Shown: positions 1,305 to 20,195 of the stretch, piece after piece
How the letters are laid out: every line of letters starts with the position of its first letter
Position numbering within the stretch: the stretch's first letter is position 1
From: Chiloscyllium plagiosum
Lineage: Eukaryota
NCBI RefSeq assembly: GCF_004010195.1
Contig: NC_057718.1
Span: 90,630,376-90,650,929 of the forward strand
Direction of reading: 5' to 3'
Length of the DNA: 20,554 nt
Program-made: the position numbers and the translations under genes
Notes under the pieces: model-generated
What the model was told of the DNA's origin: nothing
The model's database searches: none
The model's input: the letters and a program-made list of their open reading frames with translations, nothing else

Positions 1305-1526
1305 CAGAGCTGAAAATGTGTTGCTTGAAAAGCGCAGCAGGTCAGGCAGCATCCAAGGAGCAGGAGAATCGACGTTTCGGGCATGAGCCCTTCTTCAGGA
1401 ATGCTGAAGAAGCTCATGCCCGAAACGTCGATTCTCCTGCTCCTTGGATGCTGCCTGACCTGCTGCACGTTTCCAGCAACACATTTTCAGCTCTGATCTC
1501 CAGCATCTGCAGCCCTCACTTTCTCC
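1305..1526 (+). mobile_element. Fold-back Penelope-like terminal element with hammerhead motifs on both arms
   Basis: Arm 1305-1398 is the reverse complement of about 1404-1495, followed by an unpaired 31-nt tail ending ctcactttctcc. Direct repeat cttcaacagaaaa at 1292-1304 and 1526-1538. Confidence 0.85.
1371..1398 (-). ncRNA. Minimal type I hammerhead ribozyme core (predicted)
   Basis: The minus strand reads CUGAAGA-A-GGGC-UCAU-GCCC-GAAA-CGUC: both conserved boxes, a 4-bp helix II, palindromic ACGU in place of helix III, and a GUC cleavage triplet. Helix I is weak and activity is untested. Confidence 0.7.
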
Positions 1527-1860
1527 TTCAACAGAAAATAGTCTGGCATAAAAGCTAGTCTAATGGCAACCACCTAACAATGTTATAAAAGCCCATCTGG
1601 TTCCCTAATGACCCCTGAGGGAAGGAAAGCTGCTGCCCTTACCTGGTGTAGCCCACAAAACAGCATGGTTGACTCTTAATTGCCCCCTGAAATGGCCCTA
1701 GCCACTCATGTGGCAATTAGGGAAAAGCAATAAAGACTGACCCAGCTCACATCCCATGACCAAGTTAAAAATTACGCTGATAAGCCAAACAGCCTTTATT
1801 CCTGCTCTTAAATATCCTTCCTCCCTTCCATCGAGGACACCATACCATACGAGAATAAGA

Positions 1861-2333
1861 GACAAAAAAACCTGCAGATGCTGGAATCCAAAATAGACTG
1901 CAGGTGAAGAACACAGCAAGCCAGGCAGCATCGAGAGGTGGAGAAGTCAATGTTTCAGGTATAACCCTTCAGCTCCTGATTTAGATTAGATTAGATTCCC
2001 TACATTGTGGAAACAGGCCCCTCAGCCCAACAAGTCCACACTGACCCTCCGAAGAGTAACCCACCCAGACCCTCTGACTAATGCACCTAACACTATGGGC
2101 AATTTACCATGGCCAATTCACCTGATCTGCACATCTTCGGAGCACCTGGAAGAAACCCACACAGACATCGGGAGAACATGCAAACTCCACACAGACAGTC
2201 ACCAGGGGTGGAATTGAACCTGGGACCCTGGTGCTGTGAGGCAACAGTGCTAACCACTGAGCCATCGTGCCACCCTCTCTACCGCCTACTGCTGCCTGAT
2301 TTGCTGTGATCTTCAAGCCTCCTCCGTGTCTAC
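1861..2333 (-). mobile_element. Related fold-back subfamily, split by an HE1 SINE
   Basis: The left arm tagac...gaagaacacagcaagccaggcagca is inverted at 2290-2333 (tgctgcctgatttgctgtgatcttc...gtcta). Degenerate TSD acgagaataaga (1849-1860) / atgagaatgaga (2334-2345). Confidence 0.7.
1980..2275 (-). mobile_element. HE1-type (V-SINE) tRNA-derived SINE, near full length
   Basis: Minus strand shows A-box TGGCTCAGTGG, B-box GGTTCAATTCC, V-domain tgtgtggagtttgcatgttctcccgatgtctgtgtgggtttc, tail gggcctgtttccacaatgtagggaatc and (TAATC)n. Confidence 0.9.
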
Positions 2334-3508
2334 ATGAGAATGAGATACAAAAAGGAAGGCAGTTTGTTTTCATCTGTCTGACTTCAAGATGCTTTGGGAA
2401 GATTCGATGGTTGTAGTACAGATGCTAGGATTGAGCAATTACTGGCCTACGGTTTGAGCTGAAGCCCTCAAAGGCTGTTGAACCCTTGTAGTTCGACTCT
2501 TGCAGGTTGTCCAGAGGCTCACCTTCCGCTGAGCTGCCTGGCAGAGGCTGAACAACACAAATACTTAGCAGAACTCTTCATTACTCTGAAGGTGAAAGCT
2601 TGCCTCAGATGCTGTAACTCACTCCAATTCACGCCAGCCCTCGTGCTCACAATCTGGTGATGAAGCAACAGTTTGATCTACTTCATAATATGTTCTTTTG
2701 GGAGGCAGGGTGAAATGATCAGACAGCACACAGGCATGTAATTTCTTACATATTTATAACACAGGAACAGTAAAGCAGAGTCTGAACAGGGCAAGAAATT
2801 ATTTTTTTTTAAAATTCAACCATGTTATTAATTGTTTCGCTATCATAACGCAGTCTGACCTGAGGGACCTGGAAGCGTCGTTAATTAATTTGAAAATTAG
2901 CAGAACTTTTCATTTAAAAACAACTAACCAAACAAAGTGATTTGGGGGATTTTGCAAAAGCACATTGATTGAGAGGTCAGTTGTAGAGCTACAGTAGTTG
3001 GCAGAAAAGTTATTAAGGGAAGTTTATATCTTGGCTGCTTGCTCAATAGGTTTTATTGGGTGAAAGTTAATTTACAACTGATCAAAACAATCAAGGAAAT
3101 AGCAGATGGCTAATTTATGAATGATTTTGTTCTAGTTTCTCACCTATATGGTAGCAAGAAGAGGTGTCCCCCTTCAAATTTAGTTCTGTGGATTACATTG
3201 TTGAGAGATTAACTTTACTGCTGAAATGTTTTAATACTTATGTTCATTGAGCTGTTGTGTAATTTTGCTGCATTGGGGAGACCACATCTGGAGCACAGTT
3301 ATGGTCTCCTTGTTTATGAAAGAATTTAGTTACATTAAAAACAGTCACAGAAAGTTCATGTGACTGATTCCTGGTATGAGGGGATTATCCTGTGAGGATA
3401 GCTTCCTTAGAATGGGCCTGTATACTGTGGAGTTCAGAAGAATGAGTGGCAACCTTATTGAAAGGCATGGATCCTGAAGGAGATTCGACAGGACGTAGGC
3501 TGAGAGGA

Positions 3509-3795
3509 ATCATAGCATTCCTACATTGTGGAAACAAGGCCATTTGGCCCATTGAGTCCACACCAACCCCCTGAAGAGCATCCCACCCATTTCTAATCCA
3601 CCTAACCTCCACATCCCTGGACAATTTAGCATGGCTAATCCACCTAATCTGCACATCTTTGGACTGTGGGAGGAAACCAGAGGAAACTCACACAGACATG
3701 GGGAACTTGTGCAAATTCCACACAGGCTGTCATCCTAGGCTGGATTGAACCCAGGTCCCTGGTACTATGAGGCAACACTGCTCGCCAGTGTGCCA
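3509..3795 (-). mobile_element. HE1-type SINE
   Basis: Homologous to 1980-2275 (ctacattgtggaaacaaggc, ctgcacatctttggactgtgggaggaaacc, ttgaacccaggtccctgg). Confidence 0.85.
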
Positions 3796-5304: not shown

Positions 5305-5497
5305 TTGAGAGAGTGTTGCTGGAAAAGTACAGCAGGTCAGGCAGCATGCGAGGAACAGGAAAATCGACGTTTTGTGATGAAGGGCTCCGACCCGAAACAT
5401 CGATTCTCCTGCTCCTCGGATGCTGCCTGACCTGCTGTGCGTTTCCAGCAACACACTCTCAACTCTGATCTCCAGCATCTGCAGACCTCACCGCCTC
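5305..5497 (+). mobile_element. Fold-back Penelope-like terminal element
   Basis: Inverted arms surround gtgatgaagggctccgacccgaaacatc. Perfect 15-bp TSD ctgtagtgtttggtg at 5290-5304 and 5498-5512. Unpaired tail of about 35 nt. Confidence 0.85.
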
Positions 5498-5717
5498 CTG
5501 TAGTGTTTGGTGATCAGATCCCAAAGTGGGACTTGAACTCAGCTTCTCTGAGGCACAGGTCCTGAGGTGTGGAATTCGAACAAGACTAGACAGGGCAAAC
5601 CTAGGAAGGATATCCCTGATGAACTGGAGAGTTCACAGTCTAAGGATGTAGGAAAGAATATTTTAGGACTGAGGGAAGGAGACATGTCTTCACCCAGTGA
5701 GCCACCCACTCCTGTAG

Positions 5718-12261: not shown

Positions 12262-12599
12262 CTCTCTCTCTATCTCTCTCTACATGACATGCCTCTCACT
12301 GTGGAGAAAGTGAGGACTGCAGATGCTGGAGATCAGAGCTTAAAAATGTGTTGCTGGAAAAGTGCAGCAGGTCCGGCAACATCAAAGGAACAGGAGAATT
12401 GACGTTTCGGGCATAAGCCCTTCTTCAGGACTCTCTCTCTATCTCTCTCTACATGACATGCCTCTCACTGTGGAGAAAGTGAGGACTGCAGATGCTGGAG
12501 ATCAGAGCTTAAGAATGTGTTGCTGGAAAAGTGCAGCAGGTCCGGCAGCATCAAAGGAACAGGAGAATTGACGTTTCGGGCATAAGCCCTTCTTCCGGA
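12262..12599. repeat. 169-bp tandem duplication (41 bp flank + 128 bp element arm)
   Basis: 12262-12430 and 12431-12599 differ at three positions by eye and share private variants (gtccggca, ggagaattgacg). Confidence 0.9.
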
Positions 12600-12697
12600 A
12601 ATGCCCTGAAGAAGGGCTTCTGCCCGAAACATCGATTCTCCTGCTCCTTTGATGCTGCCTGACCTGCTGCGCTTTTCCAGCAACACATTTTTAAGCT
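12303..12697 (-). mobile_element. Fold-back Penelope-like terminal element with a duplicated long arm
   Basis: Long arms start ggagaaagtgaggactgcag at 12303 and 12472, and the inverted short arm spans about 12606-12697. TSD catgcctctcactgt at 12288-12302, 12457-12471 and 12698-12712. Confidence 0.85.
12401..12428 (-). ncRNA. Minimal type I hammerhead ribozyme core (predicted)
   Basis: The minus strand reads CUGAAGA-A-GGGC-UUAU-GCCC-GAAA-CGUC. Confidence 0.7.
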
Positions 12698-13562: not shown

Positions 13563-13686
13563 GAGAAAGTGAGGTCTGCAGATGCTGGAGATCAGAGCTG
13601 GAAATGTGTTGCTGGAAAAGCGCAGCAGGTCAGGCAGCATCCAGGGAACAGGAGAATCGATGTTTCGGGCATAAGCCCTTCTTCAG
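13563..13686 (-). mobile_element. Single-arm copy of the hammerhead-bearing element
   Basis: One arm only, whose minus strand starts at CTGAAGAAGGGCTTATGCCCGAAACATC. Perfect 14-bp TSD gaaatcctattcag at 13549-13562 and 13687-13700. Confidence 0.85.
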
Positions 13687-13700
13687 GAAATCCTATTCAG

Positions 13701-14058
13701 CTTTGCTATTAGATCTAAGCCCTTCATTAGTCTTGCTGGAAGATCTAGACCCTTGGGTGGCCTTGCTGATAGGTCTAAGCCCTTGGTCGGCCTTGCTGAT
13801 TGGTCTAAGCCGTACATTGGGCTCGCTGATAGGTCTAAACCCTTGGTAGTCCTGCTGATCGATCTAAGCCCTTGGTCGGCCTTGCTGATAGGTCTAAGCC
13901 CTTGATCGGCCTTGCTGATAGGTCTAAGCCCTTGGTTGGTCTTGCTGATAGGTCTAAGCCCTTGGTTGGACTTGCTGATAGGTCTAGCCCTTGGTTGGAC
14001 TTGCTGATAGGTCTAAGCCCTTGGTTGGACTTGCTGATAGATCTAAGCCCTTCATCAA
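13701..14058. repeat. 30-bp minisatellite, about 12 units, consensus CTTGCTGATAGGTCTAAGCCCTTGGTYGGN
   Basis: The ctaagccc-like core recurs every 29-31 nt. Units are more degenerate at the left end. Confidence 0.92.
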
Positions 14059-14150: not shown

Positions 14151-14607
14151 CATAGCATCACGGAGTCATAGAATCCTACAGCGTGGAGACAGGCCCTTCG
14201 GCCCAAACTAGTCCATGCCGACCAAAATGTCCATCCATGCTAATCCCATTTCCTTGCACTTGGCCCATATTCTTCTAAACTTTTCCTATCTATATATTTG
14301 TCCAAATGCCTTTTAAATACCTGTTAATGTACCTGCCTCAATCACTTCCACTGGCAGCTCATTCCATACCACCCTTGGTTTAAAAATGTTGCCCCTCAGG
14401 TTCCCTTTTCTTCTTTCCCCTCTAACATTAAACTGATGCCCTCTTGTCCTTGATTCCCCAACACTGGGAAAAAGATTGAGTGCATTCACCCTATCCATAC
14501 CTCTCATGGTCTTATGCACTTCTATATGGTCCCCTCTCAGTCTCCTACACTTTGAAGAAAAATGTCTTGGGTCCTGGCAACATCCTTGTAAATTTCTTCT
14601 GCACTCT
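14151..14607 (-). mobile_element. CR1 (HER1-type) LINE 3' end
   Basis: ORF 14313..14519 (KTMRGMDRVN...ESRTRGHQFNVRG...RVVWNELP) plus 3'UTR gggccgaagggcctgtctccacgctgtaggattctatgac. Confidence 0.9.
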
Positions 14608-17185: not shown

Positions 17186-18784
17186 GAGTCATAGAGTCAT
17201 ATAGCACAGAAACAGACCCTTCGGTCCAACTGGCCCATGCTGACCATTATCCCAAACTAAACTAGCCTCACCTGTCTGCTCCTGGCCCGTATCCCTCCAA
17301 ACCTTTCCTAGTTATGTACTTATCAAAATGTATTTTATACATTGTAATTGTGCCCAGATCTACCACTTCCTCAGGAAGTTCATTCCACACATGGACCACC
17401 CTCTGTGTAAAATATTTGCCTCTTATATCTTTTTAAAATCTTTCTCCTCTCACTGTACCCCCCCTAGTCTTGAAACTCCCCATCCTAGGGAAAAGATAAC
17501 TACCATTAACTCTATCTACACCTTTCATTATTTTATGAACTTCTATCAGATCGCCTCTCAACCTCTTAAGCTCCAGTGAAAAAAGTCCCAGCCCATCCAG
17601 CCTTTCTTTATAACTCAAACCTTCCATACCCGGCAACATCCTGATAAATGTCTTCTGAACCCTCCCAAGCTTAATAATACCCTTCCTAAAACAGGGCATC
17701 CGGAATTGGAAACAGTAATCCAGAAGAGGCCTCACCAATGTCCTGTACAACCTCAACATGACTTACCAACTCCTATACTCAAAGGACTGAACAATACCCA
17801 AGGCCCTACCATTAACTGTATAAGCCCTACCCTTGTTTGCTGTATCAAAATAGAATACCTCACATTTATCCAGATTGAACTTCATCTGCCATTTTTCAGC
17901 CCATTGATCCATTTGATCAAGTTCCTTTTGTCACCTTAGAAAACCTTATTCGCTGTCTACAATGGCACCAATTTTGGTGTTGTCCGCATGCCTTCTATAT
18001 TCTCATCCGAATCATTTACATAAATGGCAAACAAAAGAGGACCCAGAACTGATCCCTGTGGATGACCGCTGGTCACAGGCCTCCAGTCTGAAAAGCAACC
18101 TTCCACTATTACTCTCTGTCTCCTGCCATAAAGCCAATCATGTATCCAATTAGCAAGCCCACCCAGAATCCCATCTGACCTAACTTTACTAATTAGTCTA
18201 CCATGTGGAACCTTGTCAAAGGCTTTACTAAAATCCAATAAACAATGTTTACCACTCTACCATCATCAACCTTTTTGGTAACTTCCTCAAAATAACTCAA
18301 CCAAGTTTGTGAGACGCGATTTTCCTTAATCAATTTTTGCCTCTCTAAATGTCCATAAACCCTATCTTGTATAACCACCTCCAACAATTTACCCACAACC
18401 AAAGTCAGATTCACAGGTCTGTAGTTTCCTGGTTTCTCCTTGCAACCTTTCTTAAACAAAGGCACAACATTAGGAGAAAGTGAGGTCTGCAGATGCTGGA
18501 GATTAGAGTCGAGAGTGTGGTGCTGGAAAAGCACAGCAGGTCAGGCAGCATCCAAGGAGCAGAAAAATCGATATTTCAGGCATAAGCCCTTTATCAGGAA
18601 GGAGTTATGCCCAAAAGTCCTGATGAAGGCCTAATGCCCGAAACATAAATTCTCCTGCTCCTCGGATGCTGCCTGACCTGCTATGCTTTTCCAGCACCAC
18701 ACTCTCGAAAGGTACAACATGAGCCAGCCTCCAGTCATCAGGTACCTCACCCGTAGTTAGAGATGATGGACATATCTCTGTAAG
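17186..18784 (-). mobile_element. CR1 (HER1-type) LINE, degenerate reverse-transcriptase ORF2 and 3'UTR
   Basis: Motifs [57 protein letters not shown] and LYRTLVRPLLDYC occur in three disjoint ORFs, with frameshifts and internal deletions. (TATGACTC)n tail. Confidence 0.95.
18474..18707 (-). mobile_element. Fold-back Penelope-like terminal element nested in CR1 ORF2
   Basis: Inverted arms with an unpaired tail of about 36 nt. TSD aaaggcacaacattag (18458-18473) / aaaggtacaacatgag (18708-18723), 14/16. Confidence 0.85.
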
Positions 18785-19130
18785 TGAATGGGACTTGGTG
18801 CAAGCTAGGATATAGAGTTTAGATATATATGGTATATGATATGAGCCTGCCCTGAAATCATTTGAATAGCTGAGTCTGGAGGCAACTAAAGCATGGTTGA
18901 TGATCTCAGCACCGAATACAAGAGACTAAAATCAATTTGCAAGTGGGCAAAGTCAAGTCTATGTAACTTCTCTCAGGCATTCCACTTTAAACTGTTTCAT
19001 TGTCACTGGCTTGACCTTCAGCTGCCCAGACCCTATACCTTTAGCTGAGGTTTCCTTCCCTCTGTGCACAGTAGTGCACTGTTCAAAACTGAGAGTTACT
19101 TCTCCCAATTCAATGCCCAATTATACAATG

Positions 19131-19419
19131 GAATAGAATCCCTATAGTGTGGAAACAGGTCCTTCAGCCCACACCAATCCTCCAAGGAATAACCCACCCA
19201 GACCCATTCCCCTACATTTGGCCCAGACTAATGCACCTAGCCTTGACATCCCTGAACACTATGGGCAATTTAGCATGGCCAATTCACCTAACCTGCACAT
19301 CTTTGGACTGTGGGAGGAAACCCACACAGACTGAATGTACAAACTCCACACAGACAGTCGCCTGAGGCTGGAGTCGAACCCTGGGTCCCTGGTGCTAACC
19401 ACTGAGCCACCGTGTTGCC
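19131..19419 (-). mobile_element. HE1-type SINE
   Basis: The minus-strand head reads ggcaacacggtggctcagtggttagcacc...ggttcgactcc, and the body and tail are homologous to 1980-2275. Confidence 0.9.
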
Positions 19420-19841: not shown

Positions 19842-19992
19842 GTTCAGACGGAGCGCAAAGCCGGTCGGGAAGGTAAGTGATTACTATATAAAGAGCTTAC
19901 CTCGACGCCAACGGTCTTTTCGCAGCAGAGAGCGGCGGGAGCTGGGCGGAAGTTCAGACGGAGCGCAAAGCCGGTCGGGAAGGTAAGTGATT
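19842..19992 (+). repeat. 41-bp perfect direct repeat with a 110-bp period
   Basis: gttcagacggagcgcaaagccggtcgggaaggtaagtgatt at 19842-19882 and 19952-19992. Confidence 0.95.
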
Positions 19993-20195
19993 GCTATTAG
20001 AGTGGGTGAGTTCTAAACCCCAGGTCCTACAAAGTAGGGTCTCCCTCCCTCCTCTAACCTTAATTAAGAGTCCACAGACGTGCCACAAAAAGAGGGTCTA
20101 AGGAAGTTTAGTTCGAAGAGTGAGGCTTCAGCTCAGGAATCTTTGACAAGGAGGTTGAGTGAAGTAATTACACCACAGTTGAAGAAGGTGAAGAC

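Follow-up and report, generated by a model that had tools for sequence, protein, structure and literature searches.

The short palindromic repeats dispersed through the window, a 20,554-nt stretch of the Chiloscyllium plagiosum genome, are composed of arms that are very probably insertion products of an EN+ Penelope-like element (PLE) and that carry a hammerhead motif for which self-cleavage is predicted only in dimers and which likely has no part in the making of the copies. The pattern of PLE minimal hammerheads is already known (PMC4209133); here it occurs in a very abundant family. Earlier, the repeats had been read from the letters of the window as the ends of a ribozyme-bearing Penelope-like family, and this reading is supported by an open reading frame (ORF) with reverse transcriptase (RT) and GIY-YIG parts, by target-site duplications (TSDs), by a one-sided tail and by published hammerhead traits.

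Insertions in the window

Searching the whole window with the hammerhead motif CTGANGANGGGCNNNNGCCCGAAACGTC, which in RNA form reads CUGA(A/U)GA-A-GGGC-N4-GCCC-GAAA-CGUC, gave seven matches at three or fewer mismatches against 0.00 expected (100 shuffles). A profile of the repeat located 13 arms, which make up five young insertions (beginning at 1305, 5305, 12303, 13563 and 18471), an old pair at 876-1033 and an old solo arm at 1871-1971 (Table 1). All five young insertions are bracketed by TSDs of 12-15 nt. The preliminary description had listed at least five TSD-flanked insertions with motif variants, decayed relatives, an intact minus-strand core at 1371-1398 and another at 12401-12428, a varying helix II loop and a weak helix I; each of these was recovered, the seven matches and the TSDs bearing out the first, the relatives lying at 876-1033 and 1871-1971, both cores matching without mismatch, the loops UCAU, UUAU and UUCU all being seen, and AUUC pairing with GAUU at 3/4 positions. 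Its view of all five as palindromic insertions holds for the four that are head-to-head, each with an inverted copy and a one-sided tail, but the fifth, 13563-13688, is a single arm, and the insertion at 12303 also holds a 169-nt tandem duplication.

Table 1. Hammerhead motifs, arms and target-site duplications in the window
Feature	Position	Strand	Details
Motif matches, 0 mismatches	1371-1398; 12401-12428	-; -	
Motif matches, 1 mismatch	12570; 12606; 13659	-; +; -	
Motif matches, 3 mismatches	5374; 18620	+; +	
Older head-to-head pair	876-954 and 955-1033	- and +	decayed, same superfamily; core mutated
Insertion 1, inverted arm	1305-1403	-	outer end without the tail of ~31 nt; intact motif at 1371-1398(-)
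Insertion 1, full arm with tail	1399-1526	+	ends ...CACTTTCTCC
Insertion 1, TSD	1293-1304 and 1527-1538		TTCAACAGAAAA, perfect 12 nt; brackets 1305-1526 exactly
Old solo relative	1871-1971	-	diverged; hammerhead decayed
Insertion 2, head-to-head pair	5305-5498	- and +	left arm (-) without tail, right arm (+) with tail
Insertion 2, motif	5374-5401	+	3 mismatches
Insertion 2, TSD	5291 and 5499		TGTAGTGTTTGGTG, 14 nt
Insertion 3	12303-12697	- and +	tailed arm (-), tandemly duplicated, then tail-less inverted arm (+, 12604-12697)
Insertion 3, motifs	12401-12428; 12570-12597; 12606-12633	-; -; +	intact; U4 to G; reads CAUC
Insertion 3, TSD	12288, 12457 and 12698		CATGCCTCTCACTGT, 15 nt
Insertion 4, solo arm with tail	13563-13688	-	own TSD
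Insertion 4, motif	13659-13686	-	CAUC in place of CGUC
Insertion 4, TSD	13551 and 13689		AATCCTATTCAG, 12 nt
Insertion 5	18471-18708	- and +	tailed arm (-, 18471-18600) and tail-less inverted arm (+, 18616-18708)
Insertion 5, motif	18620-18647	+	3 mismatches
Insertion 5, TSD	18459 and 18709		AAGGCACAACAT at 18459, AAGGTACAACAT at 18709; 11/12 identical

On the minus-strand arm of insertion 1 cleavage is predicted between 1371 and 1370, and the hammerhead copy of its plus-strand partner (1404-1429) has a 2-nt deletion in the 5' strand of helix II. The left arm of insertion 2 is 5'-truncated within the motif. In insertion 3 the duplicated unit of 169 nt (12262-12430 and 12431-12599, 98% identical) consists of 41 nt of flank plus the whole arm, and this duplication accounts for the only same-strand pair of hammerhead motifs in the window.

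Other repeats are present in the same stretch. Beside the solo arm, at 13674-14052, a minisatellite begins with at least 11 copies of a unit of ~30 nt (CCTTGGTYGGNCTTGCTGATAGGTCTAAGC). A dispersed repeat unrelated to the arms (...CCCTACAGTGTGGAAACAGGCCCTTCGGCCCA...) lies at 1982-2208, 3503-3739, 14158-14205 and 19124-19367, and a direct repeat of 46 nt (19842-19887 and 19952-19997, 98% identical) has its copies 110 nt apart.

Anatomy of the arm

The repeat unit is one arm of ~95 or ~130 nt, not the palindrome. In RNA sense it reads 5'-AUUC-CUGA(A/U)GA-A-GGGC-loop-GCCC-GAAA-CGUC-GAUUCUCC...UUUUCAGC, with the predicted cleavage point directly after CGUC; the motif is followed by ~60 nt whose end is UUUUCAGC, after which an optional 35-nt tail finishes in CACUUUCUCC. 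Arms stand solo or in head-to-head pairs inside one TSD, mostly with exactly one tailed arm per pair. In the arm consensus an AUG in loop II opens a frame of 27 codons, closed by UGA just past the first 3' end site (CAG CUC UGA).

We read the 29 nearest genomic copies (30 were taken, one of which lacked the anchor word): nine are solo, 15 have an inverted arm or a piece of one upstream, and five extend upstream into a common longer sequence. Among these copies the palindrome centres vary by several bases, and the inverted arm stops nearly always at GCTGAAAATG, that is, without the tail. TSDs at other genomic loci are 9-15 nt long.

Palindromes with flanking duplications, for which Rfam returns only spurious miRNA-hairpin matches, could in principle be MITEs or foldback DNA transposons with a chance resemblance to a hammerhead at their centre. 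The variable centres, the solo arm with its own TSD and the tail-less inverted arm are at odds with copying from a palindromic master and with a MITE: in place of fixed-length TSDs and a palindromic master we found TSDs that range from 9 to 15 nt, centres that differ between copies, asymmetric arms of which one is tailed, and solo arms with TSDs of their own. In addition, the arms are continuous with an RT-GIY-YIG ORF, and a minimal-hammerhead descriptor gives 59 matches against 0 in the control, as set out below. We therefore consider a MITE or foldback origin extremely improbable. In annotation the palindromes should be assigned to PLE fragments when masked, and not to MITEs or miRNA hairpins.

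Abundance and end points of the arms in the genome

An unbiased random sample of 100 stretches of 10 kb (965,002 non-N bases) held 217 arms, which lie in 78 of the 100 stretches and cover 2.16% of the bases. This corresponds to ~225 arms per Mb or about one per 4.4 kb, close to the one copy per 3-4 kb that had been estimated from the window, and extrapolates to a genome total of ~0.8 million arms in 3.56 Gb.

At their 3' ends, 87 of the 217 arms have the tail, 93 lack it and 37 end otherwise. Among 48 pairs of neighbouring arms with a gap of at most 60 nt, 43 are head-to-head and three are on the same strand, and the head-to-head pairs contain one tail in 35 cases, none in eight and two in none. 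The 5' ends divide into 130 that reach the 5' edge of the motif and 87 truncated within the arm. Those reaching the motif end there (82), meet an inverted arm (25) or continue into the long element (23). The commonest 5' end is the A of TCATTCC, 4 nt upstream of C3 (32/105), and arm starts at most 2 nt from the predicted cleavage site number 5/217.

This concentration of ends bears on a second reading, in which the short arms are a self-standing non-autonomous element that borrows the PLE enzyme and are not by-products of full-length RNA. The template would be a separate short RNA starting at AUUCCUGA, with an initiator-like TCA(+1)TTCC placed exactly at helix I. Such an RNA would fit with the 107 of 130 motif-reaching arms (82%) that stop within a few nucleotides of the motif, only 23 continuing into the 3' UTR of the long element, with the commonest end 4 nt upstream of C3, and with the 2.2% of the genome that arms cover; PLE end repeats with Inr-like promoter motifs have also been described (PMC3846280). 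However, a strong RT stop at the same point would look alike, and part of the class that ends at 4 nt comes from other long subfamilies. RNA reads of one run cover arms on both strands, and 96% of them continue into unlike sequence, many of these entering the 3' UTR of the long element; the read ends show no pile-up, in a library of a type that cannot map RNA ends. From a second run no reads aligned to the arm. On balance we regard a separate short RNA as possible, though somewhat doubtful.

Arms are joined to a Penelope-type ORF

In long copies the arm is continuous upstream into an ORF with RT, CCHH and GIY-YIG parts, which is the PLE signature. The locus L045 has a frame of 387 aa with YIDD, CCHH and GIY-YIG motifs (...IIYCIRCSRCGLLYIGETDRLLAERFREHL...), and an arm with an intact motif begins 108 nt past the end of this frame. 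Against the Pfam GIY-YIG family (PF01541) the frame scores 22.6 bits, exactly the cut-off, and a related copy, L043, matches RVT_1 at 33.3 bits (cut-off 29.6). When the genome was searched with an RT piece of 114 aa, 56,237 candidates came up at first look, and from these we picked 17 loci by RT similarity alone. A same-strand arm lies downstream of the endonuclease part in 13 of the 17; of the remaining four loci, one has the arm after a 1-kb gap, one runs off the contig end, one has N there and one has no arm. Long copies attached to an RT plus GIY-YIG ORF, named beforehand as what to look for, were thus found.

The locus L034:946-2940 contains two long RT-EN copies that meet head-to-head within the RT region, with a tail on one of them only. 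This is the same geometry as that of the short palindromes, at the kilobase scale.

Searches with three short, frameshifted ORF remnants (L016, L008) against Pfam gave nothing useful, and the RT and EN pieces had 0 sequence matches in the PDB. In a protein atlas the nearest clusters are animal 'hypothetical proteins', a minority of whose members carry PF26215, GIY-YIG or RVT_1, which we take as a lead only. Parts of the ORF are covered by N runs of 113 to 3,428 nt at L008, L012, L023, L030, L043, L044 and L150; these runs may be either assembly gaps or withheld sequence.

A direct arm adjoining the 5' region of the element was seen at 0/29 loci, which represent one subfamily and may all be 5'-truncated. 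Because this direct 5' copy was not found, we do not call the arms pseudo-LTRs (pLTRs) in the strict sense. Two candidates at the 5' side were rejected: the arm ~1.4 kb upstream at L148, considered as a 5' pLTR, is an unrelated old copy, and L043:2643, considered as a sharp 5' boundary of the element, is a truncation of that one copy. Upstream of the N-terminal part of the ORF, at L152, L155, L160 and L179, the 5' region of the long element has GC-rich tandem repeats of ~38 nt with CCGCCCC boxes; it looks more like a monomer-type promoter than like an arm copy.

Structure and conservation of the hammerhead motif

The motif follows the order of a type I hammerhead, and its core (C3-A9, G12-A14, A15.1, U16.1 and H17) is exact at the two intact window sites. 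The additional base between A9 and position 10.1, the G10.1-C11.1 pair and the palindromic positions 15.2-16.2 are all present (A-GGGC...GCCC and ACGU). The extra A after A9 had been put forward as a tolerated variant; a bulged base at this place, G10.1-C11.1 and a palindromic helix III are published traits of PLE hammerheads (PMC4209133).

A hammerhead search had two outcomes. The minimal-hammerhead descriptor found 59 matches in the sample and window and 0 in reversed sequences, but no Rfam hammerhead family matched at the gathering score or at E up to 10. The Rfam result is a weak negative because the motif has only 28 nt and almost no helix III; Rfam output consisted solely of sub-threshold, spurious miRNA-hairpin matches, which arise from the palindromes.

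One of four intact variants is carried by 34 of the 126 gap-free sample arms, and these variants differ solely at N7 (A/U) and in loop II (UUAU, UUUU, UCAU and CUGU). Across the consensuses of four subfamilies, 1/22 constrained hammerhead positions differs against 36/104 other positions (Fisher p = 0.004). The constrained position that differs is a CpG; the motif otherwise varies only at N7 and in loop II, and the scatter within copies is mostly CpG decay. Blocks of the arm outside the motif are just as constant from one subfamily to another. Helix I is a perfect 4-bp pairing (AUUC/GAAU) in the CUGU subfamily, and in the minimum-energy fold of solo-arm RNA helix II is formed and the core stays unpaired. 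In a further, recently amplified subfamily GAGC replaces GGGC, so that helix II contains an A.C mismatch. To this lineage belong 17 of the 29 nearest genomic copies (four of them long) and 11 of 160 sample arms.

A second, unrelated tail family in the sample, family B, bears a hammerhead of its own (CUGAUGA-A-GGAGC-GUC-GCUCC-GAAA-GCUA; 14 copies in 965 kb, for example at L062:173-215(-), L080, L124 and L129), together with its own optional tail of ~35 nt and head-to-head pairs. Family B keeps the bulged A and has a different helix II from the family of the window (family A); its palindromic helix III is AGCU versus ACGU in family A, and its helix I is CAC/GUG versus UUC/GA(U/A). All three helices thus differ between the families and yet pair, in sequences picked with a pattern that allowed only stem transitions. 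The helices were tabulated by script, a MAFFT alignment being off by one column. Covariation in helix II, sought as a sign of the hammerhead, may accordingly be present between the two different families, but none is seen among the subfamilies of family A, where the stem is invariant.

Cleavage and the making of copies

Does the hammerhead act in producing the arms? Cleavage does not appear to be necessary for making the copies, since the 5' ends are not at the GUC site, a subfamily with the GAGC mismatch has been amplified and same-strand neighbours are rare. Same-strand neighbours are what a dimer needs, so their rarity (3/48) counts against cleavage mattering, and the lack of a direct upstream arm in 29 loci means that a dimer partner within the same RNA was not found. 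For a transcript through a palindromic insertion, fold prediction gives a hairpin of -181 kcal/mol with the core buried. We also considered cleavage after CUC in CUCA, a valid NUH site, as the origin of the arm 5' end; it was rejected because, judged from the sequence, no copy of the core can pair with the flanks to make helices I and III.

The same facts lend some weight to the idea that the conserved motif has lost its ribozyme function here and persists as a module of the element RNA with a structural or recognition role, for instance for the RT. The GAGC subfamily was amplified despite its mismatch, only 5/217 arms have their start 2 nt or less from the cleavage site, a partner in the same RNA was not found at the 29 loci, and other arm blocks are as invariant between subfamilies as the motif. 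Moreover, PLE minimal hammerheads have low activity in vitro (PMC4209133), and among the results cited here for the Anolis PLE, insertion in vitro was unaffected by hammerhead mutation and no reads ended at the cleavage site (PMC11167929). Against this idea, all catalytic-core bases are kept with drift only at N7 and in loop II, and family B keeps the fold with other sequences and a helix III that is different but palindromic; this is the pattern predicted by selection for the hammerhead fold. We think loss of ribozyme function unlikely. A narrower version is more doubtful still: the hammerhead might sit, partnerless for want of a 5' pLTR and uncut, at the 5' end of a mini-template of ~130 nt starting TCA(+1)TTCC, where it would be a 5'-terminal recognition or protection module and not a processing ribozyme, in a PLE without the pseudo-LTR layout.

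Under the preferred reading, that the arms are EN+ PLE insertion products, the course of insertion may be pictured by analogy with the Anolis Poseidon element (PMC11167929). The RT would begin synthesis at one or the other of two internal sites separated by 35 nt, and priming would occur on both cut DNA strands. By the same Poseidon analogy, copying of the RNA would run as far as a discrete 5' end located 4 nt short of the hammerhead core, and mirror-image stubs would arise anew at each landing. On the preferred reading the hammerhead is kept intact in source lineages, and the bulk of the copies then decay, mostly at CpG. We counted as points against the preferred reading the Rfam null, the lack of covariation between subfamilies, the 3/4 helix I pairs, the GAGC mismatch, the few cleavage-site starts, the 3/48 same-strand pairs, the -181 hairpin, the missing upstream arm and the GIY-YIG score at the cut-off.

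The arms record three things: alternative 3' ends at two sites separated by 35 nt, a single discrete 5' end at the ribozyme edge, and almost no starts at the cleavage site. These end points back, from genomic copies, the claim made in vitro that uncleaved RNA serves as template (PMC11167929). The family described here offers a large natural record with sharp, countable ends, though it does not itself settle what the hammerhead does in PLEs.

Comparison with known systems

Minimal hammerheads of metazoan PLEs, including the fish Poseidon, Neptune and Xena elements, were described by Cervera and De la Peña (2014; PMC4209133), with a base between 9 and 10.1, a G10.1-C11.1 pair, palindromic 15.2-16.2 and low in vitro activity as dimers. 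The arms share with these the type I order, the near absence of helix III, the ACGU palindrome, the unpaired base after A9, G10.1-C11.1 and a short helix I, as well as the occurrence of many dispersed single motifs and of opposite-strand pairs 100-700 bp apart. They differ in a helix II of 4 bp versus 6-8 bp in several described families, in a family far less variable than the reported 'extreme variability', in that a direct flanking repeat was not found, and in that cleavage is here predicted only.

Retrozymes provide a further comparison. The arms have in common with animal non-LTR retrozymes that they are non-coding repeats with type I hammerheads and are related to the terminal regions of PLEs (PMC7229834; 10.64898/2026.07.22.740005), and the latter preprint ties vertebrate hammerhead repeats, those of one cartilaginous fish included, to PLE ends. 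Unlike the arms, of which only 3/48 neighbouring pairs are on the same strand, retrozymes are described in these sources as tandem arrays giving circular RNAs. Head-to-tail repetition is not the layout of this family, and the only tandem within the window, the 169-nt duplication, takes in flanking DNA as well.

Frangieh et al. (2024; PMC11167929) showed for PAc, the Poseidon PLE of Anolis carolinensis, that the tail lies between two RT start sites and that both DNA strands are extended. The arms resemble PAc in that putative start sites bracket a genomic tail, both strands would be cut and extended and the hammerhead lies ~100 nt upstream of the start sites, and the PAc results cited give, as do ours, no sign of cleaved RNA as template. 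As reported there, the PAc ORF begins inside the hammerhead; here, in contrast, the AUG in loop II leads to a stop after 27 codons, and the arm follows the ORF.

An inverted, 5'-truncated copy together with a one-sided tail of 30-40 bp has been given as a PLE signature (PMC8557442), and PMC3846280 records an inverted pLTR that falls 37 bp short of the full ones and comes with a 31-bp tail and a 9-bp TSD. Pen2a of Adineta vaga and the other EN+ PLEs to which these reports refer are full or long elements with direct pLTRs, whereas here most copies are stubs of 95-130 nt; the TSD, the inverted copy shorter by 31-37 nt, the one-sided tail and the 5' truncation are common to both (PMC3846280, PMC8557442). 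The features of EN+ PLEs found in this family are an RT plus GIY-YIG ORF joined to the repeat, a one-sided tail with an inverted copy, and a variable TSD.
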